Sequence record: NC_041937.1
Strand: one strand, 5' to 3'
DNA: 64,000 nt
Origin: Escherichia phage V18
Both the position numbers and the translations under genes were made by a program. Positions 28,503-56,457 of the stretch are shown here, one piece after another (positions within the stretch are counted from its first letter, which is position 1; every line of letters starts with the position of its first letter). A model generated the notes under the pieces. It was given only the letters and a program-made list of their open reading frames with translations. It was not told where the DNA came from and did no database searches.

Positions 28503-28531
28503 TTGACAACGCCAACCCTGTGTGAAATAAT
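28503..28531 (+). promoter_or_regulatory. sigma70-like promoter (TTGACA-17-AATAAT)
   Basis: -35 at 28503-28508. Confidence 0.55.
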
Positions 28532-36991: not shown

Positions 36992-37096
36992 TCACCCGAT
37001 ACCGTTGGAAGACAAGATCACATTAGCCATGGTTGCAATCAGGCCAATACCCAGGGCAATAACCAGGATCACCGCATCAATTAATTTCTGTTTCAT
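36992..37096 (-). CDS. small hydrophobic peptide (34 aa)
   Basis: RBS AGGAAGAGGATAAA; MKQKLIDAVILVIALGIGLIATMANVILSSNGIG. Confidence 0.3.
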   Translation of the reverse strand: MKQKLIDAVILVIALGIGLIATMANVILSSNGIG

Positions 37097-37240
37097 GGTG
37101 TTTATCCTCTTCCTGTTGCGTTTAATGGGGCGCTTGTCTCCCCTACTTATTATGTTTTAATCTTCTTGTTCCAGGTGGCGGACCATTCCACCGCCTTATG
37201 TATTATGCTTTGTAAGATGGTTGTTTGTTTTCAAACTATT

Positions 37241-38298: not shown

Positions 38299-38616
38299 TT
38301 AAGAGAAAACATCGTTCACAATAGCGATCACAATGCCGCCCACCTTGTCACGGTCAACAATGCACAAATCACCATAGATCATGTGGTAGTCTGGATGATC
38401 TTTCACGGAATAGTCAATGAGTGTCTTCTTATCGTCCAGCTTACTAACTTCCATTCTCATAAAGATATGAGAATCATCAAAGGCATTATTCCGAAAAGTC
38501 ATAACCTGACCGCCAGGGCACCCGGTGATTTCCACCTCCACGCCGTCTACGATCTGACCATCAAAGAAATAAAGATTATTAGCGGGTATAAACATGATCA
38601 TTGCTCCTTTTTGCAC
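38299..38616 (-). CDS. hypothetical protein
   Basis: 105 aa; RBS AAAAGGAG. Confidence 0.4.
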   Translation of the reverse strand: MQKGAMIMFIPANNLYFFDGQIVDGVEVEITGCPGGQVMTFRNNAFDDSHIFMRMEVSKLDDKKTLIDYSVKDHPDYHMIYGDLCIVDRDKVGGIVIAIVNDVFS

Positions 38617-38640
38617 TGATTATTTTAACAGGGTTTAAAT

Positions 38641-38689
38641 TTACTTTATTGATGGCCCTGGAGTCAAGGCCATCTAAAAATAAATTTTA
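38641..38689. repeat. copy 1 of a conserved ~50-bp intergenic element
   Basis: ttactttattgatggccctggagtcaaggccatctaaaaataa; near-identical to copies at 42367 and 42987. Confidence 0.7.
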
Positions 38690-38694
38690 CAGGC

Positions 38695-38886
38695 CTACAA
38701 TCTCTTTATTCGTTTTACTGCTGCCTCAGCGCCTTGAGGGTAAAAATTATGGTAACCAATCACGCGGGTAATACTGATCGCCGCCTGATGATCTTCATAA
38801 TACCCCTTGAATATTTCTTGACCATCAACCAGCACAGCAATTTTTTCTTCTTTTTTGAAGTTAATAACGCGGATATTGTTGCTCAT
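38695..38886 (-). CDS. hypothetical protein
   Basis: 63 aa ORF. Confidence 0.35.
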   Translation of the reverse strand: MSNNIRVINFKKEEKIAVLVDGQEIFKGYYEDHQAAISITRVIGYHNFYPQGAEAAVKRIKRL

Positions 38887-39364
38887 TTTGTTTCTCCTTT
38901 TGGAACTTTGTCTGTGTGGTGGGGAGTGTCTCCCCGTTGATTGTTATTATCCATATTCAGGACCGGATTGCAACACCCAGGGAGAAAAAATTTGAAAAGT
39001 TAGGCCCCAGGGATCGGGGCCGTTATCAGGCACGTACAGCGATAAAATACATCCCTACGCCTAACAATATTTCAAGGGCGATGATCTCCAGCCATACCAT
39101 AACACGGCGCGCCTTATCGGTGCTGGGCTTATCCTTGGGTGTCATCGTCTCCCCCTTTCCTCCTGTTAGTAGTGACGTGGTTTGTAATGGTCCCCAGGAG
39201 TATTATCACCACGCACATTACAAGAAAAATTATCTCTGTCGTTGTTCGATCCATTGTTATAAAACTCCTTAAGATCAGGCCTGAAAATAAAGCTTTCGTT
39301 ATTGAATCCATCCCGCCAGGCGGCTGGCTTCAAATCTTCACTAAATGGATTAATTAACGTGGTA

Positions 39365-39736
39365 TTATTTAAACGGCTGGCCCACATATTTTCTATTCCT
39401 CTCAAATAAGCGATCCGCCTCAGTTAAACAAATCTCATGGGCGTGATCTCTGGTTTTAGCTTCATCGAAAACCTGTTGTGCAAGGCTGCAACGTAGGGAG
39501 ACTGGAAGATCACTATAATAGGCGTTGACAAACGTTTGAGCGTCGTACAGGTCTGAAAATACTTTACCCTTTCTATTATTCCCCTTGTCAACAATTGCAA
39601 GGATAACCAATACAATAGTTGCAACCACCCCCAGGAAAATAGATATAATAAACCATAAAAAGGCGGATCTTCCCATCTTGCCAGCGATCCAGGCGTTAAA
39701 CAAGGCAACCAATACAGCCAAAATAATAAATTCCAT
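39365..39736 (-). CDS. membrane protein
   Basis: RBS AAGAGG before ATG 39736 (MEFIILAVLV); two transmembrane segments. Confidence 0.4.
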   Translation of the reverse strand: MEFIILAVLVALFNAWIAGKMGRSAFLWFIISIFLGVVATIVLVILAIVDKGNNRKGKVFSDLYDAQTFVNAYYSDLPVSLRCSLAQQVFDEAKTRDHAHEICLTEADRLFERNRKYVGQPFK

Positions 39737-39877
39737 TCTATGTACCTCTTTTACAGTTCTGATTAACAATAAGGCGGCAAATATGCCGCCTGTTACCTGA
39801 TTAAAAATTATCGCCGTAAAGCTTTCCGCTTTCTGCCCATACCACCACGCGAGGCATACTATCCCACACGTCTTGTT

Positions 39878-40180
39878 TTAGATTAACGCGTGCAATTCTT
39901 CGGTGGTGCTCATACCGGGCACGGGCTGATTGTATACTGCAAAACGACCGCCTGCATAATCATAGGCCAGGGTTAAATCACACTGGATCATCTTTTTGAT
40001 CATGGCATTAAGCATGGCGTTAGCCGCATATTGATCACGTTTTAAAGGCAACTCTTTGATTAGTTTGCGATAGTTTTCGATATGGTCGCACACTGTTTCA
40101 CGAGGAAGATCTTTCATATCCTCGCGAAAGGTAACCAGGTTAAACATAACGGTGTCAATAGCTTTGGTAGTGTTTTTCAT
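39878..40180 (-). CDS. hypothetical protein
   Basis: RBS AAAGAGGA before ATG 40180. Confidence 0.4.
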   Translation of the reverse strand: MKNTTKAIDTVMFNLVTFREDMKDLPRETVCDHIENYRKLIKELPLKRDQYAANAMLNAMIKKMIQCDLTLAYDYAGGRFAVYNQPVPGMSTTEELHALI

Positions 40181-40268
40181 GATGTTATCCTCTTTGTTTT
40201 GTGTGGGGCAAATCATCGCCCCCTTGAGTTTTAATATAGCAGGTTTTTAGGTTATTGCAACACTTTAT

Positions 40269-40478
40269 TTATGAAAAAGTCATCTCACCATATTCATCGA
40301 CATCAAACCGCCAATCATTGGCCTCGATAAGGCCGATCAGGTTTTCTGCGGTGAACTGTTCTAGATAGGCCTCCTCCAGGTCTACGTAAACCTTGCGGGA
40401 TAGCTCCCGTACCGTCTCGGTGATCAGTTCTTCCAGTCTTCCACTTTGTTTTCTTGTTTGGCGGTCAGATCTAGCCAA
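40269..40478 (-). CDS. hypothetical acidic protein
   Basis: 69 aa ORF. Confidence 0.35.
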   Translation of the reverse strand: MARSDRQTRKQSGRLEELITETVRELSRKVYVDLEEAYLEQFTAENLIGLIEANDWRFDVDEYGEMTFS

Positions 40479-40497
40479 GTGGTATCAATGTACCCGC

Positions 40498-40890
40498 TTA
40501 CAGTGTTTTCATGGCTGTAATGGCTGTACTTGTCGCGTTCAACACTGGCTGATAACTCGCATCGTGCATTGTGCCGAACAAGTGACGAATTGATCGGAAC
40601 TTGGTCAGGGCCCTTACTTTACGCAAAAATTTTTCTAAATCCACGTTTTCAGCACTGATTGAAGCGCCGTCACCCTGGCACCAAAAGCCGGACCAATGTA
40701 CTTCGGTATCTTCAAGGCCGTACTCTGGAAAGATATATTCTTTGTAGTGTTCAATTACACTTTCTGCAAAAAAGTCATCCCCGCTGCGTTCTTCTCTTTC
40801 GCGGACCATTTCAATGGCTTTTTCTTTTTGTTCGTCGGTCAGCACGTCGAAAGATAAATTGCAACCTGTAGTAATGTTAACGGTAGTCAT
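40498..40890 (-). CDS. hypothetical protein
   Basis: 130 aa; RBS ATAGGAGAAAA; promoter and leader hairpin upstream. Confidence 0.4.
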   Translation of the reverse strand: MTTVNITTGCNLSFDVLTDEQKEKAIEMVREREERSGDDFFAESVIEHYKEYIFPEYGLEDTEVHWSGFWCQGDGASISAENVDLEKFLRKVRALTKFRSIRHLFGTMHDASYQPVLNATSTAITAMKTL

Positions 40891-40946
40891 GATGTTTTCT
40901 CCTATTTTCTTTGTTAGTGGCGGGAAGTTTTCCCGTTTACGTGTTT

Positions 40947-40975
40947 AAGTATACTTATCAAGATTTACTTGTCAA
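40947..40975 (-). promoter_or_regulatory. sigma70-like promoter (TTGACA-17-ATACTT)
   Basis: plus-strand tgtcaa at 40970-40975 and aagtat at 40947-40952. Confidence 0.5.
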
Positions 40976-41225
40976 CACTATTTTTTAAATTATTGTGGCG
41001 CAAAATGTTTAAAATCTCCTCAACGTCATCAACACGGCGGCAATTTTTAAACGCTACCAATTGCCCCATGATTTTAATCACTGGGCGGCCTTGCCAGTGC
41101 CCCTGGAGAAAGCGCGCCTTGACTTTATCGGTGGAACTATCACGCCACCAAATAGCCTTGTTGTTGCAGTAGTAAAAATTATTCAGGACAACATCAACTT
41201 TATCAAAATTTTTTAATTTACGCAT
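40965..41225 (-). CDS. hypothetical protein
   Basis: 86 aa ORF. Confidence 0.35.
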   Translation of the reverse strand: MRKLKNFDKVDVVLNNFYYCNNKAIWWRDSSTDKVKARFLQGHWQGRPVIKIMGQLVAFKNCRRVDDVEEILNILRHNNLKNSVDK

Positions 41226-41430
41226 GGCGTTTACTCCTTTCTCTCTTTGATGTGGTTAGTATAGCTAACCTGTTGACGATGTCAAGGTTAAATAAAAAAC
41301 TGTCAATGATATTTTTAACGCCATAAAACGGCCCTAAGCGATGTTTTCAGGTTAAAGGGGGGGCGATTGCATAGGTGGGGCCTTTTTGGCGCTTACAGGG
41401 CCAACCAGGGGCGCTATTCGTAGGATAGAA

Positions 41431-41457
41431 ATAAAAAGCCCCGCACAATGGCGGGGC
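41431..41457 (-). terminator. intrinsic terminator
   Basis: gccccgc-6 nt loop-gcggggc then U5 on the minus-strand transcript, just after the 41466 stop. Confidence 0.6.
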
Positions 41458-41465
41458 GTTGGTTG

Positions 41466-41687
41466 TTATTTGTCTTTATGGCGGTATCGTTCTGCCTGTC
41501 GTTCACGTTCCAAAAGTAGGCCGGGCAATTTACGATCATAATGATTGCGCCAGATCTTCCCAAACCTTTTTGGCTTATTCAGTTTATTGTTACGCTGGCG
41601 GCGTTCTGGCAGCTCTTCGGAATCATGAGGGCGCTTTACAATTTTCTCGAAATTAATTTTCATATATTCCCCCCTTGCTAACTTCAA
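41466..41687 (-). CDS. hypothetical basic protein
   Basis: 73 aa, Arg/Lys-rich. Confidence 0.4.
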   Translation of the reverse strand: MKLARGEYMKINFEKIVKRPHDSEELPERRQRNNKLNKPKRFGKIWRNHYDRKLPGLLLERERQAERYRHKDK

Positions 41688-42004
41688 TATTGGCCTGAAT
41701 AGCCGATACGGCGCTTTATAACTTCCTGATCTGTGTGGTCATATCCCCAAAAGTCTACGATTTTTGCGCCTCCAGCCTTTAGGCGGTATAGTGTTTCTTG
41801 CATCTTGTAAGCTGGGATCGGTCGCGGTGTTACCTGGTCGCCTCTCTCATCCTTGTACTTGATAATGTAGTCTTCGTTGTCGTTGAATGCCCAAAATGGG
41901 TATTCTGTGAGCGCGTTGCTATCTTTTTCGTTTTTAGATTGGATCTTGTTTACAATTAAAGCCGTAGCAATAGCGCCAATGATAAAACTAGCCCCGCTAA
42001 TCAT
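41684..42004 (-). CDS. membrane protein
   Basis: 106 aa; N-terminal SFIIGAIATALIV. Confidence 0.4.
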   Translation of the reverse strand: MISGASFIIGAIATALIVNKIQSKNEKDSNALTEYPFWAFNDNEDYIIKYKDERGDQVTPRPIPAYKMQETLYRLKAGGAKIVDFWGYDHTDQEVIKRRIGYSGQY

Positions 42005-42079
42005 GTACTTTCTCCTTTCATGGTGTTAATAAATTATCTTTATAGATGGCCCTGCAACCAGGACCACCGAAAAAACAGC

Positions 42080-42325
42080 TTATTTGACGATACCGACAAA
42101 ACAGATCCCGCCTTCCCCTATATAGGCAATATCGGTAATTTTATAATTTGTCAAGATCTGCTTATTTAGTTCATTAATAAAATCGGTCATTGCGTTGGTG
42201 TAGTTGTCTTCCGTGTCTAAGGCATAATCCCAGGTGTACACCTTTTTACGTCCGAAGCCTTTTACCATGATACGGGCGCTTTTGGTGTTGGTAGGGGCAT
42301 AATATTTGGTGATTAGTGCTGCCAT
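42080..42325 (-). CDS. hypothetical protein
   Basis: 81 aa ORF. Confidence 0.4.
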   Translation of the reverse strand: MAALITKYYAPTNTKSARIMVKGFGRKKVYTWDYALDTEDNYTNAMTDFINELNKQILTNYKITDIAYIGEGGICFVGIVK

Positions 42326-42366
42326 GGTTTTAACTCCTATGCATTAGTTCAGTGTTAACAGTATAA

Positions 42367-42417
42367 AGTTTACTTTATTGATGGCCCTGGTGTCAAGGCC
42401 ATCTAAAAATAAGCTTA
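42367..42417. repeat. copy 2 of the conserved ~50-bp intergenic element
   Basis: 51 nt identical to 42987-43037. Confidence 0.8.
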
Positions 42418-42755
42418 CTCGTTTTCTTCCAGCTCCGCAAGCTCTTCTTTTGCTTCTTCCAACCCTGTCTGTAATTCCTGGTATTCTTCATCGTCCTCAA
42501 TATCCAGCTGTCGATGTAGTCGCTAAATCCGCAGCGGTAAGCGATAGGATCTAGCTCCTTGAGGATACGCGACGGAAGAAAAGAAATGTTTCCGATCATA
42601 ATTTCGCCGTAGATCTCGTCTAACCATTCATCATAGTTTTCGTCGTACTTGTCCTCGTCGATTTCAAAGTTATCGATCTTATTCTCAAGGTCTGCGATCT
42701 GTTTTTTCAGCGCGGCGATCTGCATGGCTTTTTCTGCGGCGGTCATAGTAGTCAT
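42393..42755 (-). CDS. hypothetical coiled-coil acidic protein (3' end probably frameshifted)
   Basis: tracked frame ends in a K/R-rich tail; an alternative frame gives an acidic end LDIEDDEEYQELQTGLEEAKEELAELEENE with stop at 42416. Confidence 0.4.
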   Translation of the reverse strand: MTTMTAAEKAMQIAALKKQIADLENKIDNFEIDEDKYDENYDEWLDEIYGEIMIGNISFLPSRILKELDPIAYRCGFSDYIDSWILRTMKNTRNYRQGWKKQKKSLRSWKKTSKLIFRWP

Positions 42756-42806
42756 GGTGTTTTTCTCCTTTTGTGTGTTCTGGGAAGTTTTCCCGTTTAT
42801 GTGCTT

Positions 42807-42834
42807 ATTATAGCGATTTAAGTTAGCTTGTCAA
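42807..42834 (-). promoter_or_regulatory. sigma70-like promoter (TTGACA-16-TATAAT)
   Basis: plus-strand tgtcaa at 42829-42834 and attata at 42807-42812. Confidence 0.5.
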
Positions 42835-42954
42835 TTAAAAGTTTAAGAAAAATTTTGCGACACCGTTGGCGCTACCCATCAACATTTGCGCCAGGATGTA
42901 CCCAATGATGCAAACGATGATGGTTACCTTTGTGTGCTGGCGTGTAGTGCTCAT
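42835..42954 (-). CDS. small hydrophobic peptide (39 aa)
   Basis: MSTTRQHTKVTIIVCIIGYILAQMLMGSANGVAKFFLNF. Confidence 0.3.
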   Translation of the reverse strand: MSTTRQHTKVTIIVCIIGYILAQMLMGSANGVAKFFLNF

Positions 42955-42986
42955 CTTCAAGCCTCCTTTTTCGCTTAATTGAGATT

Positions 42987-43037
42987 AGTTTACTTTATTG
43001 ATGGCCCTGGTGTCAAGGCCATCTAAAAATAAGCTTA
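42987..43037. repeat. copy 3 of the conserved ~50-bp intergenic element
   Basis: 51 nt identical to 42367-42417. Confidence 0.8.
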
Positions 43038-43183
43038 GTAAATTTTCAGTACTTTACCGTCCAACCTGTCAAGCTGGATCTCGATAGCTGCAGAAAACCT
43101 ATTGTACACCACGTCGCCCATAGAATCCAACCAGTCTATGACGTTATACACTTGCTCTTTGTTCTTGCAGGTCCGGATCCGTT

Positions 43184-43396
43184 TCATGATGTAAGCCGGA
43201 TCAATATTGGTACTCTCGTTGGGGCCTTTACCACCACCTGGAATGGCTTTAAGGTGCCTTTTGCGTTCATCTCACGCGCTTTTGCGGCGCGGTTGTTATA
43301 TGTTACACAACGGCGGCAAATGTTGATCAAATGCATGTCAATAATTTTTTCATCGTTTGCCAACTCGTTCATGATGCGGCGTACGTTCTTATTCAT
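43184..43396 (-). CDS. hypothetical protein
   Basis: 70 aa ORF; C-terminal part may be out of frame. Confidence 0.3.
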   Translation of the reverse strand: MNKNVRRIMNELANDEKIIDMHLINICRRCVTYNNRAAKAREMNAKGTLKPFQVVVKAPTRVPILIRLTS

Positions 43397-44913: not shown

Positions 44914-45089
44914 AAAATCCATTTCTGAAAACGAAAAATCGATTTCGTTCCCAAAAATTTTAGACCTGGTGCTGGACCAATTTCAAGAAAATCCGATTCA
45001 GAAAACGAAAAACAGATCGAGTACCGAAAAATTTATCGAGAAAAATTTTCAGAAAATTCAATCTTTGAAACGAAAAACAGATCGAGTAC
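44914..45089. repeat. tandem direct repeats (three units of ~66-74 bp)
   Basis: gaaaacgaaaaa(c/t)... at 44927, 45001, 45067; a 23-mer is identical between units 2 and 3. Confidence 0.7.
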
Positions 45090-45401
45090 TTGGAAAGCTG
45101 TGCCGCAACTTCAAGATAGTGGTTGGATTATTACCATAAAAGGTCAAGGGTAAGCGGAGGAAGTTCCCGTAGAAGGGTGTGAGCATGTGCGGGAAATCTG
45201 TAATGGTGATCTGGAATATGGTGCAAACGATAGGATGAGTGATTCATCTCGTCGTGCCTGCTCTGAAAAATCCATTTTAGTTTTCGATCCATTTTCTGAT
45301 TTTCTAAGGATTTTAAAATATCCGGGCAGGTAAAATATCAAAAGGAGGAAATCCATTTTAGAAATCCCCCTTACACTTGATATGCCAGGAATTTTCAAGT
45401 A

Positions 45402-53720: not shown

Positions 53721-56457
53721 CTGTGATCTGGAACGGGACTCCCATCATTTTAGAAGCTTGCCAGAAGCAATGCACCACCATTTCACCCACAGGGCTCCAG
53801 ATAAGCTCAAGCTTTCCGTCATCGTTCAGGATAGGATCGTACACCGTGTTTCCGTCTCTGTCAACCACTTCGTTTCCGTCCTCATCCTTGCGTGCCTTTT
53901 TGTACTTATGACCGTCGAACACATGAAGTTTGGCCTCCTGCTCTGCCTTAAATGCTTCCAGTTCTTCGATTGTGTCGAAGGTGTACACAGTCTTATACTT
54001 CGGTGTGTCAGGGACTTGAAGCTGATATTCGTCATGGTAATAGATAATACGACGAACACCTTCATCGTACCACCCACGCTTCACCATTTGGTGGTGCATG
54101 AGTATCCCAACTAAGTCACACAGCGATGCACCACCATTCTGTTGGTATGCATTAAGTAAAGAGTGTTTAGATCGGGTCCAGATAGCATGACCATCAAAAG
54201 AGTAGATAAACTTCTTACCCGTTGCTTCCCAGAATTTCTCCAGATCTTCTTTACGCCCCTTAAGACCGGGGTTGGCATCCCAAAGTGCATCGATTACCCT
54301 TTGTCCCAACTCTGGAGAGATGTCCAGCATATCTGCAACTTTATCTTTTTGTGCCCCATACATAACCCCATACGTGATAGGTTTACCGTCGTTACGAGAC
54401 ACCTCTCTGCCTGCTACTTTTGTATATGCTTCAGCATTGTTTTGGTGTGCGTCCCCGTTACTTACAACATCATAATACAATCCGTTGTCGAACTCAAAGG
54501 CACCCCAAGCCCCGATAAGCTGCTCTAAGTTGGACCCGTCAATACCGATCTCAAAGTATCCTGGAGGAACACCCCACAGACTACGCATCTCTTTACCCAT
54601 GACCACTTTAGGAGATGGTTTAGGCATGTTTGCACAAATACTGTGTTTCTGTCGGGAAGTGTTTGTTAACCCAGAGCTTTTAGCAGGAAGCTTATGGTCA
54701 ATCTTCAAACGTGGATGATTAAGAAGACCAGTATCAACCTTATCCTCCTTGATTGGATCAAGTACCGATCTGCGGTTTCGCAATGATAACCACAAGACGA
54801 TATCTTTAGCCATCTCTCCGTTCAATTTTTCAAGATTCGGGCATAGGTGTCCAAACGTATCTTTCAGTTGCGGAGAAGTAATAAGTGCCCTAGCTTTTCT
54901 ACGTATTTTCCCGAATACTTCCTTTTTAATCCTTTCGGAGTTAGGAAAGCTTCGGAACTTGTGCACGGTTGTCTGGAACTTAGCATCAGTTTTGTTCCAG
55001 AAGTTGATAATCAGGTCACAATACTCTGACTCTAAAAGCTCGTCCATATATGCATATACTCGTGCATCAACATCTGCATCAGGTAGAGCTTTCTTCTTGC
55101 TGTCTTTAGTTACATCCTTAGTTCTCCACATTGTCGGAAGCCAACCAGCACTGATCAGGTATCGCTTAATGTCGTCCTGGTTGCTGATTTTCATAGGTAT
55201 CTTGCAGTCCGGCATTCGCTTCTGCTGTAGATCACTTATTGCCTGATCCATTAGCTCTTTAGGTAAAGGTTGTGGTGTGGAGGTGCCCTTAATATAGCCT
55301 CTCAAGAAATCAGCCATCTTATCGGGGTCTTTGCAGCCCATCTCTTCACACCATTTTATCCCCATCTTACTGACATCTCCTGTAGAGGTAAATGCTCGCT
55401 TAGGCGGGGCTTTGAACTCTAAAGCGCTCATATCTACAGGATAGCCAAGCTTATCTTTTAACCATTTCCAACCATTATTGGAGATTGTCCCATCTTGGTT
55501 AAACGGCTTTTCAGGGAACTTGGGCCGCTGAGACATTGACAGCTCTTTTAAAGGTAGTTGCGGTTCAACACGATCAGCGATTTCTTTCATCCACGCATCG
55601 CAACGGTCACGTAAAGCAATAGCTCCATCTATGTCAAAATACACACCCTGACGGGCCTGCAGCTCCATCAGGAAGTGCTGCAGCATGCCTCGGCGTAATG
55701 CGTTCTTCCAGGTGATCTTCTTGAACCCTTTCGGCTTCTCTTTGGCAGGATCGTACATAAAGTTCTGCATGTCAGATTTGCCGTAGAATACACCTTTTGA
55801 TTCCGCTACCAGCTCTTTCCAGAGCAGCTCCTGGATGATAACGTCCTCGAATACACGATCCACATACTTCCACAACGGAAGATCGCGCCAGTCATCAATT
55901 TGAACTTTCTGGTTACCAAGGGCGTAGCCCCATGCCATAAGGCCGTGAGGACCAACAGGTTGCATTTTCTTAGTAACCGGGTTGAATACAGCGTCCGGAC
56001 AACCTTTTGGTAAAGGGCGATCAGGCCACAAGATTCGGCTCATAGCCAACGTATCAAACAGGTTAACCTGGTGGTCGTTGATAGTCCCCATGCATTTAGG
56101 ATCACGGAACATATCAAAATGAATACCGGATAATCTTTCCATCAGCATAAAGTCATAACTGTAGCAGTTATGGCAGTTCAAAGCTGTTGGTGACCAGTCG
56201 GAATTGCCTGTAAGCCAACCTTCCAACTCCGAAAAATCTGCTATGCGAACTTCAAAATCTTTATAAAGAGTTTTCTTTGCCAGAATAAAGTTCTTAGCCT
56301 TTTCTATATCCTCCTCGGAGTAGTGTGTGCGGCTATTTAGAGGAAGGAACAGCATAAAACGGTTCTTATTCAGCTCTTTAAACAGACCGCAGTGATAATA
56401 AAGATCTGGGTCTTCCAGCAAACCGGATGACTCAAAATCGAACGACCACATACTCAT
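53680..56457 (-). CDS. DNA polymerase, family A (Pol I/T7-like) with 3'-5' exonuclease domain
   Basis: 925 aa; N-terminal FDFESSGL (Exo I), motif B-like KPITYGVMYGAQ, motif C YYHDEYQ. Confidence 0.9.
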   Translation of the reverse strand: MSMWSFDFESSGLLEDPDLYYHCGLFKELNKNRFMLFLPLNSRTHYSEEDIEKAKNFILAKKTLYKDFEVRIADFSELEGWLTGNSDWSPTALNCHNCYSYDFMLMERLSGIHFDMFRDPKCMGTINDHQVNLFDTLAMSRILWPDRPLPKGCPDAVFNPVTKKMQPVGPHGLMAWGYALGNQKVQIDDWRDLPLWKYVDRVFEDVIIQELLWKELVAESKGVFYGKSDMQNFMYDPAKEKPKGFKKITWKNALRRGMLQHFLMELQARQGVYFDIDGAIALRDRCDAWMKEIADRVEPQLPLKELSMSQRPKFPEKPFNQDGTISNNGWKWLKDKLGYPVDMSALEFKAPPKRAFTSTGDVSKMGIKWCEEMGCKDPDKMADFLRGYIKGTSTPQPLPKELMDQAISDLQQKRMPDCKIPMKISNQDDIKRYLISAGWLPTMWRTKDVTKDSKKKALPDADVDARVYAYMDELLESEYCDLIINFWNKTDAKFQTTVHKFRSFPNSERIKKEVFGKIRRKARALITSPQLKDTFGHLCPNLEKLNGEMAKDIVLWLSLRNRRSVLDPIKEDKVDTGLLNHPRLKIDHKLPAKSSGLTNTSRQKHSICANMPKPSPKVVMGKEMRSLWGVPPGYFEIGIDGSNLEQLIGAWGAFEFDNGLYYDVVSNGDAHQNNAEAYTKVAGREVSRNDGKPITYGVMYGAQKDKVADMLDISPELGQRVIDALWDANPGLKGRKEDLEKFWEATGKKFIYSFDGHAIWTRSKHSLLNAYQQNGGASLCDLVGILMHHQMVKRGWYDEGVRRIIYYHDEYQLQVPDTPKYKTVYTFDTIEELEAFKAEQEAKLHVFDGHKYKKARKDEDGNEVVDRDGNTVYDPILNDDGKLELIWSPVGEMVVHCFWQASKMMGVPFQITGEYLCGRNWGDCH

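Follow-up and report, generated by a model that had tools for sequence, protein, structure and literature searches.

The 64-kb window analysed here (the whole stretch of DNA under study) represents the early region of a Vequintavirus (rV5-like phage), with transcription from the minus strand. Between its small early genes lie four copies of a unit of ~55 bases, in which a predicted host-type early promoter is joined to a conserved sense-strand RNA hairpin. The four copies cluster within 4.4 kb, and each is located after the stop codon of a minus-strand gene and before the RBS and ATG of the next one, in agreement with a preliminary description of this DNA that had placed the element at gene boundaries. 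On the minus strand, the order within the unit is the stop codon of the upstream gene, a T-run, a 10-bp GC-rich stem with its tetraloop and an A-rich run; the RBS and ATG follow ~40 nt beyond the -10 (TAAACT). The copies and their neighbours are as follows.

38637-38687, minus strand: copy 1, full hairpin, with the upper stem at 38651-38674 and a lower stem of 11 bp
38662-38667 and 38638-38643, minus strand: predicted promoter of copy 1, -35 TTGACT and -10 TAAATT, respectively
38695-38886, minus strand: gene upstream of copy 1, stop codon TAG at 38695-38697
38299-38601, minus strand: gene downstream of copy 1
42028-42084, minus strand: copy 4, with a 10-bp upper stem at 42045-42068 and a lower stem of 13-14 bp, within which lies the stop codon TAA of the ORF191 homologue (42080-42082)
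42367-42417, minus strand: copy 2, upper stem 42380-42403, -35 TTGACA 42391-42396, -10 TAAACT 42367-42372; the normal stop codon TAA of the ORF192 homologue is at 42415-42417, and the copy is predicted to drive the ORF191 homologue (42080-42325)
42987-43037, minus strand: copy 3, upper stem 43000-43023, -35 43011-43016, -10 42987-42992; the stop codon TAA of the upstream ORF is at 43035-43037, and the copy is predicted to drive the ORF193 homologue (42835-42954)

Three of the copies are nearly identical (38638-38688, 42367-42417 and 42987-43037). The core, GATGGCCCTGGNGTCAAGGCCATC, gave three matches at up to 3 mismatches, against a shuffled expectation of 0.00 (100 shuffles), which bears out the earlier report of a ~50-bp element present three times. 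The identity of copies 2 and 3 extends over exactly 51 nt, as had been stated, and copy 1 (38638-38688), which shows 90% identity to the reference, had been put in the right place with an immaterial offset of ~3 nt. The count of three is correct for the near-identical copies but overlooks a fourth, diverged one (42032-42082, 73% identity; extended hairpin 42028-42084), which was detected by repeat search, nhmmer and a covariance model. With its filters off, the covariance model found these four copies only in the whole 64-kb window. The element occurs in 119 phage records, typically in three detectable places per record, and orthologous positions hold all four copies in each full-length Vequintavirus locus examined; the check on positional conservation in relatives, which the preliminary description had proposed, was thus passed. 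The proteins flanking the copies all belong to PHROG families of unknown function, and a Pfam search with them gave no significant match; the small variable ORFans that mark regions with promoter-early stem-loops (PeSLs) are found here as well.

On the minus strand, copies 2 and 3 read TTGACA-N18-TAAACT, which matches the consensus at 10 of 12 positions, and copy 1 reads TTGACT-N18-TAAATT (9 of 12). Judged by consensus match, copies 1-3 carry the properly spaced sigma70-like promoter of a PeSL-type unit; copy 4, in which CTGGTT replaces TTGACA and the -35 is lost, does not, and it counts as a degraded 'half' copy. Among the 25 distinct promoter-bearing copies TTGAC is invariant, with variation at hexamer position 6 and the next base alone. 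In the record of phage Gotham the same site is annotated as a promoter, a prediction of the PhagePromoter software. The stringent promoter list of the rV5 authors omits the site, and in rV5 each neighbouring gene has its own listed sigma70 promoter. The promoter of the element is suboptimal (18-bp spacer, 4/6 match in the -10), promoter density in this region is very high, and the typical promoters of these phages have an A-tract upstream of the -35, not a T-run and a GC stem. A literature search returned no transcript data for any Vequintavirus. From the hexamers and their spacing we infer that the element is a sigma70-type early promoter. The combined promoter and terminator cassette envisaged in the preliminary description thus keeps its promoter half, which is favoured by the consensus matches, the distance of ~40 nt to the RBS and ATG and the Gotham annotation, but loses its canonical-terminator half, as a T-run precedes and an A-run follows the hairpin on both strands.

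On the sense (minus) strand, an upper stem of 10 bp, GAUGGCCUUG/CAGGGCCAUC, with one G-U pair, carries a loop of 4 nt; below it come a 2x3 internal loop and a lower stem of 7-14 A/U bp, formed by the T-run upstream and the A-rich run downstream, -10 included. The full hairpin therefore comprises 20-24 bp in two stems around an asymmetric internal loop. The 7-bp stem gatggcc/ggccatc noted earlier is the Watson-Crick core of this structure but not its full extent, and the TTGAC that had been assigned to the loop does belong to a minus-strand TTGACA -35, although it spans the stem top and the loop. The RNA minimum free energy of the hairpin, -20.7 to -23.6 kcal/mol (z = -4.7 to -5.4), is that of a stable stem-loop of the PeSL type and makes the three copies the most structured among 105 promoter-like sites in the window (median -8.1). 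A scan of Rfam 15 yielded no family at the gathering score; the sole overlap, with the rhtB sRNA, reached 23.1 bits versus 55 (E = 2.9) and is attributable to chance.

The pairing of the hairpin is maintained by compensation, and it is strand-biased. Fitted to 34 distinct copies, which represent few independent lines of descent (in essence, two families of paralogues with their sub-variants), a 24-pair model is 90.7% paired, as against 36-54% with the partners slid. In this set the upper helix is 100% paired, its three variable pairs all being wobble-compatible, and the lower-helix pairs 11/51 (UA, GU, AU, GC) and 12/50 (AU, UA) are paired without exception; within a family, variation is limited to loop and internal-loop bases. 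The gene-sense strand is 98.5% paired and the other strand 86.5%, with mean dG of -24.1 and -14.7, respectively, and the ssDNA folds of the element are weak. In copy 4, all 10 upper-stem pairs are kept via two G-U pairs and one U-G to C-G change, so that the DNA palindrome is degraded to 8/10 while RNA-type pairing is still 10/10. Its lower-stem pairs are kept by double changes (A-U to U-A, U-A to G-U/G-C, C-G to U-A), and the changes that worsen its -10 (GATAGT, GACAGT) maintain or improve pairing. Composition could contribute to the complementarity of the upstream T-tract with the A-rich -10 region, the lower stem being A/U-rich, and gene conversion could partly account for the invariance of the stem within the main family.

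The copies also coincide with the gain and loss of genes. Copies 3 and 2 bound the following cassette.

42418-42986, minus strand: the cassette, containing the ORF193 homologue, P192 and the ORF192 homologue
42835-42954, minus strand: ORF193 homologue
42807-42834, minus strand: consensus promoter TTGACA-16-TATAAT, the 'P192' of rV5
42415-42755, minus strand: ORF192 homologue, with a 1-nt frameshift in this window

Exactly 620 bp, that is, the cassette and one element copy, is cleanly absent from at least four phages (magaca, ime, phiWec189 and ECP32) and from one metagenomic contig (IMG/VR contig L024), all of which carry a single hybrid element, flanked on the left as copy 3 is and on the right as copy 2 is. 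The two flanks of the junction copies have different nearest relatives, and loop variants are frequently common to paralogous copies within one genome. Phage KKE7M, a Justusliebigvirus of another subfamily, shares only 42363-42835 (93.5%), which corresponds to the promoter, ORF192 and the element, and this homology ends just past the -10; the gene and the element thus appear to have been transferred to it. Repeated copies coincide with indels between close relatives, as expected of PeSL-type units, and the recombination scar suggested earlier is better described as an active recombination substrate and module boundary, given relatives that lack exactly the inter-copy segment. Most other indels of this region do not have the element at their flanks. 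Since fine-scale mosaicism is general in the region, homology alone may account for recombination at the copies, which would then be a side effect and not a function under selection.

Taken together, these observations suggest that the element is probably a composite regulatory cassette of the PeSL type in the ORFan-rich early region of Vequintavirus; no PeSL-like cassette has previously been described for rV5-like phages. As double-stranded DNA it would act as a sigma70-type early promoter, consisting of the T-rich upstream tract, TTGACA, the 18-bp spacer and TAAACT/TAAATT, from which a monocistronic-like mRNA would start ~7 nt past the -10, for the small gene beginning ~40 nt downstream. In read-through RNA from upstream promoters the unit would fold into the long sense-strand hairpin, whose lower stem would begin at the upstream stop codon and finish at the -10. 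This hairpin presumably sets or protects the 3' end of the upstream cistron and so uncouples it from the downstream one, with an RNase III-type cut at the internal loop as the leading candidate and a 3' exonuclease barrier or weak attenuator as the alternative. Its almost identical repetition at a distance of a few hundred bases would also make the unit a substrate for homologous recombination, leading to deletion, insertion or exchange of the intervening genes.

As modelled, the hairpin makes an RNase III-type site plausible: its 10 bp, 2x3 loop and 7-14 bp provide the ~two turns of dsRNA and the stems around an internal loop found at T7-type sites, although a literature search turned up no report of RNase III cleavage at the element. 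One could go further and regard it as a strict RNase III processing site, as in the T7 early region, with the promoter-like hexamers secondary or fortuitous. The conserved asymmetric 2x3 internal loop, 10 bp below the tetraloop, speaks for this, since two stems around an asymmetric internal loop are reportedly the geometry of T7 early RNase III sites (the work of Dunn and Studier and of Nicholson), and so do the intercistronic position, in polycistronic early transcripts without terminators between the genes, and copy 4, which retains the hairpin without a promoter. Yet TTGAC is invariant in all distinct main-family copies, the spacing to the -10 and the RBS is exactly promoter-like, Rfam gives no match, and the 10-bp upper stem alone would be too short should the weak A/U lower stem not form in vivo; we consider this reading possible but doubtful. 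It is unlikely that the element combines its promoter with an intrinsic terminator or attenuator that stops or strongly cuts upstream read-through, as reported for PeSLs, even though the upper stem is GC-rich and stable, copy 4 is annotated as 'terminator' in the record of phage Murica, and placing a PeSL stem-loop upstream of lacZ, behind a promoter, lowered expression as much as rrnB T1 did (PMC2839356). The flanks are in the reverse order, U-run before and A-run after, and the hairpin is followed by AAUAAAGUAAA in the minus sense and UAAAAAUAA in the plus sense. As no copy has a U-tract 3' of the hairpin on either strand, the sequence speaks against a canonical intrinsic terminator. A terminator scan of the window did not call the hairpin; it did call the following intrinsic terminator, which is predicted to close the unit that copy 2 would start.

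41438-41457, minus strand: canonical intrinsic terminator, GCCCCGC...GCGGGGC then TTTTTATTT

Moreover, copy 4 has a promoter-bearing gene on one side and, on the other, the ORF190/189 homologues, which lack a good promoter themselves and have a canonical terminator behind them; these genes need read-through, and copy 4 therefore cannot terminate efficiently. That the element is a plain duplicated sigma70 promoter, its inverted repeat functionless and conserved through recent duplication and gene conversion, seems quite unlikely. Homogenisation is suggested by the identity of copies 2 and 3 and by the loop variants common to paralogues, the hexamers and their spacing are conserved, and promoters are dense here. 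On the other hand, copy 4 has no -35 and still keeps its upper-stem pairs through wobble-compatible changes and its lower stem through double changes, the pairing is strand-biased, the typical local promoters have an A-tract in place of the T-run and GC stem, and the stem arms fall at -42 to -36 and in the spacer, positions normally free of sequence constraint. The perfect 7-bp inverted repeat GATGGCC-N10-GGCCATC, centred on the -35 of three promoters and with arms invariant in >100 genomes, might instead be an operator at which a dimeric phage or host protein switches the early promoters off or on. This is highly unlikely: in copy 4 it is the palindrome that decays and not the RNA-type pairing, covariation reaches the A/U lower stem, the pairing is asymmetric between strands, and no candidate regulator was found. 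Least probable, and very improbable in our opinion, is that the imperfect palindrome after the stop codon of each cassette ORF, strand-specific and backed by covariation, is a structure-recognised recombination site, beyond a regulatory signal alone. Such a site may be a lytic-phage analogue of integron attC sites or be recognised by a dedicated recombinase or resolvase, a PeSL 'helper' such as phage endonuclease VII, and would serve for the active excision and insertion of promoter-equipped ORFan cassettes; if real, it would account for the clean cassette indels and for the transfer to a different phage subfamily.

To the best of our knowledge, promoter/stem-loop cassettes have so far been described only for T4-like phages. 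The same architecture in the unrelated rV5-like phages, with direct comparative evidence of cassette loss or gain and of cross-subfamily transfer, suggests convergence, and such cassettes may be a general route by which large lytic phages maintain a shuffleable pool of self-expressed accessory genes. The structural conservation is unusually clear, in compensation, strand bias and persistence after promoter decay, and a hairpin that wraps the entire promoter offers a compact test case for one sequence serving as a DNA promoter and as an RNA processing or stability signal. As rV5-like phages are widely used in therapy and biocontrol, the element is also of practical interest: it marks natural, tolerated insertion and deletion points of the early region and is a predicted promoter mostly missed by current annotations.

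Among known systems, integron attC sites resemble the element in being imperfect palindromes of ~55-60 nt directly after the stop codon of a cassette ORF, with a strand-specific fold, and in the gain and loss of small gene cassettes. The resemblance is no more than an analogy. The element lacks R/L core boxes (no GTTRRRY), no integrase was found, its fold as ssDNA is weak and the cassettes carry their own promoters. Bacterial REP/BIME elements are likewise short imperfect palindromes repeated intergenically just 3' of stop codons, and REP elements are known as hot spots of recombination that also shield the mRNA upstream of them against 3' exonucleases; unlike them, the present element has neither the GTAG head nor an associated RAYT transposase, and is phage-borne, promoter-carrying and of very low copy number. 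The early RNase III sites of T7/T3 (R0.3 to R1.3) are also intercistronic hairpins of polycistronic early mRNA, in which an asymmetric internal loop separates an upper from a lower stem over ~two helical turns, and by analogy the upstream message could retain a protective 3' stem once the hairpin is cleaved. The T7 sites, however, lie clear of promoters and are unlike the element in sequence, and the lower stem of the element is all A/U and weak.

PeSLs are known from the T4-like phages RB49/phi1, PST/T4 and nt-1/KVP40 (Arbiol et al. 2010, PMC2839356; Comeau et al. 2014, PMC4122927). Their stem-loops may overlap the -35, with G-T pairs noted, and indels and mini-circles have been reported (PMC2839356), as have degraded half-PeSLs with the stem-loop only (PMC4122927). 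The present element occurs in an unrelated myovirus lineage (Vequintavirinae), has no sequence similarity to PeSLs and amounts to only four copies; its hairpin, far longer than theirs, takes in the complete promoter: the -35 is found at its tip and the -10 in its basal stem. PeSLs have the terminator-like form G(n)-loop-C(n)T(n) and their stem-loops are reported to terminate, whereas here a U-run precedes and an A-run follows, and the element lacks the expected U-tract. Yet the two kinds of unit share their layout: an AT-rich tract starting at the stop codon of the upstream ORFan, a sigma70-like early promoter with a stem-loop that can overlap its -35 (G-T pairs), and an end at the SD/ATG of the next ORFan. 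In each case the unit recurs within an early region that is hyperplastic, the genes between two copies are subject to clean indels, and some copies are degraded to the stem-loop alone.

The repeat considered here, a unit of about 51-55 nt that places a promoter and a hairpin between small early genes, occurs in four copies in the window:

38638-38688, minus strand: copy 1, 90% identical to copies 2 and 3
42032-42082, minus strand: copy 4, a diverged copy with 73% identity
42367-42417, minus strand: copy 2
42987-43037, minus strand: copy 3, identical to copy 2 over 51 nt

Copies 1 to 3, and the exact 51-nt identity of the last two, had been put forward in the preliminary description and proved real; a 24-nt core occurs three times, as against 0.00 expected from shuffled sequences. 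Copy 4 was recovered by a repeat search, by nhmmer and by a covariance model, which, run with filters off over the whole 64 kb, returned nothing beyond the four copies. A weak nhmmer match at 54166-54216 lies within coding sequence and was rejected as a chance hit. All four copies occupy conserved intergenic positions. The surrounding 10 kb matches 252 phage records, at best with 92-94% identity to Escherichia Vequintavirus, the closest rV5-like phages being WalterGehring, RudolfGeigy, navn, naam and rV5. The genes annotated there are nearly all small, hypothetical and on the minus strand, and this part of the genome is the early region, for which the rV5 authors tabulated many sigma70-type promoters (PMC3606486 Table S4). 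Some 17-22 records in GenBank that bear the name 'Campylobacter phage' (UNVERIFIED and without annotation) also show >90% identity to E. coli Vequintavirus over the element's region and are probably contaminating coliphages.

On the minus strand, copies 2 and 3 read TAA-GCTTATTTTTA-GATGGCCTTG-ACAC-CAGGGCCATC-AATAAAG-TAAACT. The upstream gene ends at the leading TAA. TTGACA straddles the stem top and the loop, 18 nt separate it from TAAACT, and the AGGAG and ATG of the next gene lie ~25-40 nt beyond that. In a consensus scan, copies 2 and 3 scored 10/12 and copy 1, which reads TTGACT-18-TAAATT, 9/12, and the GenBank record of phage Gotham carries a PhagePromoter prediction at the same site. This layout suggests that the element acts as an early promoter. 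It is absent from the promoter and terminator tables of the rV5 paper, probably because a spacing of N15-17 and a score of 10/12 were required there. The usual promoters of these phages have an A-tract ahead of the -35 hexamer, whereas the element has a T-run and a GC stem. Stem-loops enclosing or abutting the -35 hexamer were also seen at other sigma70-like promoters, at 28503 (+), 35322 (-), 22178 (+) and 2078 (+); these unrelated promoters include the equivalents of rV5 P150, P164 and P090, and at 28503, 35322 and 22178 the -35 lies inside the hairpin, so that pairing a promoter with a hairpin looks like a general feature of this phage's design, not peculiar to the repeat. A second repeated regulatory unit lies on the minus strand at 40910-40947 and 42770-42807, ahead of two different genes, and also in phage KKE7M (locus L007, 6581-6677); in this unit a 5'-UTR hairpin, GGGAAAACTTCCC, lies between a consensus promoter, TTGACA-16-TATA[AC]T, and the RBS.

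The hairpin noted in the preliminary description is present, but the 7-bp stem given for it was too short: the RNA fold is larger and belongs to the sense strand. In each copy a tetraloop caps an upper stem of 10 bp, one of them a U-G pair; beneath this come a 2x3 internal loop and a lower A/U stem of 7-14 bp, in which the T-run and the stop codon pair with the A-rich run that includes the -10 hexamer. The gene-sense RNA has a free energy of -20.7 to -23.6 kcal/mol (z = -4.7 to -5.4), that from the other strand reaches -18.2 and -10.6 kcal/mol, and the three promoter-bearing copies are the most structured among 105 promoter-like sites in the window (median -8.1).

This sense-strand hairpin is conserved with compensation. 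The comparison drew on the window, 12 GenBank phage loci and three IMG/VR loci, which together gave 34 distinct copies; a 24-pair model was 90.7% paired across them, as against 36-54% when the partners were slid. The upper helix is paired in all 34, and its three variable pairs show wobble-compatible changes only (A-U/G-U, C-G/U-G and U-G/C-G). Pair 11/51 of the lower helix occurs in four types (UA, GU, AU, GC) and pair 12/50 in two (AU, UA), neither ever being unpaired, while pair 9/53 switches between U-A and C-G. Variation inside each family is confined to the bases of the loop and the internal loop. Pairing of the inner 20 pairs reaches 98.5% on the gene-sense strand versus 86.5% on the other, with a mean RNA dG of -24.1 versus -14.7. 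A function as a cruciform or as single-stranded DNA is unlikely, since the DNA folds are weak (-7.6 to -12.6 for ssDNA) and the plus-strand arm is mismatched. In copy 4 the -35 hexamer is lost (CTGGTT), and some phages also have a decayed -10-like hexamer there (GATAGT, GACAGT), with pairing kept or improved in every case; selection therefore acts on the hairpin independently of the promoter, although the sample consists essentially of two paralogue lineages with their sub-variants, and the independent events are few. No Rfam family matches the element.

The element had been proposed to combine a terminator with a promoter, and the Murica record labels copy 4 a terminator; the canonical terminator did not survive closer inspection, as no U-tract follows the stem on either strand. 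All copies have a U-run before the stem and an A-run after it, an order found on both strands because the unit is palindromic. A terminator scan did not call the element, though it picked out a textbook terminator at 41438-41457. That terminator ends the ORF190/189 homologues, which have no good promoter themselves and are separated from the ORF191 homologue by copy 4, so that transcription would have to read through copy 4. In such read-through transcripts the hairpin could set or protect the 3' end of the preceding gene's message. The leading candidate for its role, already among the early suggestions, is cleavage of the RNase III type in the internal loop; alternatively, it may serve as an exonuclease barrier or a weak attenuator.

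The remaining suggestion, a recombination scar, was supported by relatives that lack exactly the segment from copy 3 to copy 2 and keep a single hybrid element. In phiWec189, magaca and ECP32 the ORF191 homologue directly follows the ORF194 homologue, and the one element at the junction is flanked on the left as copy 3 is and on the right as copy 2 is; phage ime and one IMG/VR contig have the same single hybrid. The absent piece is exactly 620 bp and comprises the homologues of ORF193 and ORF192 together with a consensus promoter. A cassette has thus been lost or gained exactly at the two copies. At the phiWec189 junction the left flank is 99% like rV5 and the right flank 99% like navn, and in magaca they are 100% like naam and 99.6% like ev146; given these differing backgrounds, the state without the 620 bp must have arisen or moved more than once. 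One loop variant is often common to the paralogous copies of a genome, as gene conversion would predict. Some observations caution against reading too much into these junctions. None of the rV5_ev146 deletions maps to the copies, and the other indels nearby have at their ends not the element but different short repeats, an RBS/start motif being one example. One of these, a 306-nt one-gene indel (window 37060-37220 versus navn locus L003, 3200-3640), has direct repeats of that motif (AGAGGATAAACACCATGAAA) at its ends; recombination junctions in the region therefore form at short conserved translation signals as well. The full-length phages compared show no sharp breakpoint of identity at the element, mosaicism being fine-grained throughout. 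We infer that the phage benefits from recombination at the copies and that this exchange is not incidental.

A gene has also been transferred, together with the element, across subfamilies. KKE7M (Justusliebigvirus, Stephanstirmvirinae) belongs to a different subfamily and has only a few short patches in common with the window, the best of which (42363-42835, 93.5%) covers a promoter, the ORF192 homologue and the element. The homology starts at the -35 of the upstream promoter and stops just past the -10 of the element; in KKE7M the element precedes, and as a putative promoter would drive, a gene specific to that phage. Homologues of the ORF191 protein are present in distant phages, yet BLAST found the element outside Vequintavirus in KKE7M alone. 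A search of IMG/VR for diverged copies, with a pattern drawn from the flanks only, returned 21 loci, and the element was present in only three (two Vequintavirus contigs), the remainder being AT-rich chance matches without the hairpin; protein-anchored searches of IMG/VR with two neighbouring ORFs led to the same two contigs only. The isim record labels the element a repeat_region.

Several neighbouring features were also noted. Proteins 31-47% identical to the 81-aa ORF191 homologue (42080-42325, minus) occur in phages of Pseudomonas and Klebsiella as well as in unrelated siphoviruses (Seoulvirus/Nonagvirus-like), an example of the wide travel of early ORFans. The ORF192 homologue (within 42393-42755, minus) has a 1-nt deletion at ~42497 relative to naam and rV5 (CAGCCTGG -> CAG-CTGG), which extends the ORF into the element, where it stops at the TGA within TTGACA; this reflects either an error in sequencing or a genuine pseudogene. 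A patch at 43180-43286 is only 51-64% identical to all seven relatives compared, with flanks above 90%, and breaks the ORF194 homologue (405 nt in rV5) into ORFs at 43035-43187 and 43184-43396. At 44914-45099, where there is no convincing ORF, three ~47-nt direct repeats (AAAATCCATTTCTGAAAACGAAAAATCGATTTCG...) spaced by 74 and 65 nt could form an iteron-like or regulatory array; a long A/T hairpin in the same stretch (44921-44958) was called by the terminator scan.

The closest described system is a cassette known from T4-like phages, the promoter-early stem-loop (PeSL). It begins at the stop codon of the gene upstream, within AT-rich sequence, contains a sigma70-like early promoter and ends at the SD/ATG; its stem-loop takes one of five places, among them a position over the -35 with G-T pairs; PeSLs cluster in hyperplastic ORFan regions, mediate indels and form mini-circles (PMC2839356), and degraded PeSLs that keep the stem-loop alone are on record (PMC4122927). 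A literature search found no paper tying PeSLs to rV5-like phages and no Vequintavirus transcriptome. The element shares all the sequence-level features of PeSLs that were testable. It differs in its unrelated host lineage, in its four copies only, all clustered, in a long hairpin that encloses the promoter and in the lack of a terminator-like C(n)T(n) tail. Judged by its sequence, the element is probably a cassette of the PeSL type.
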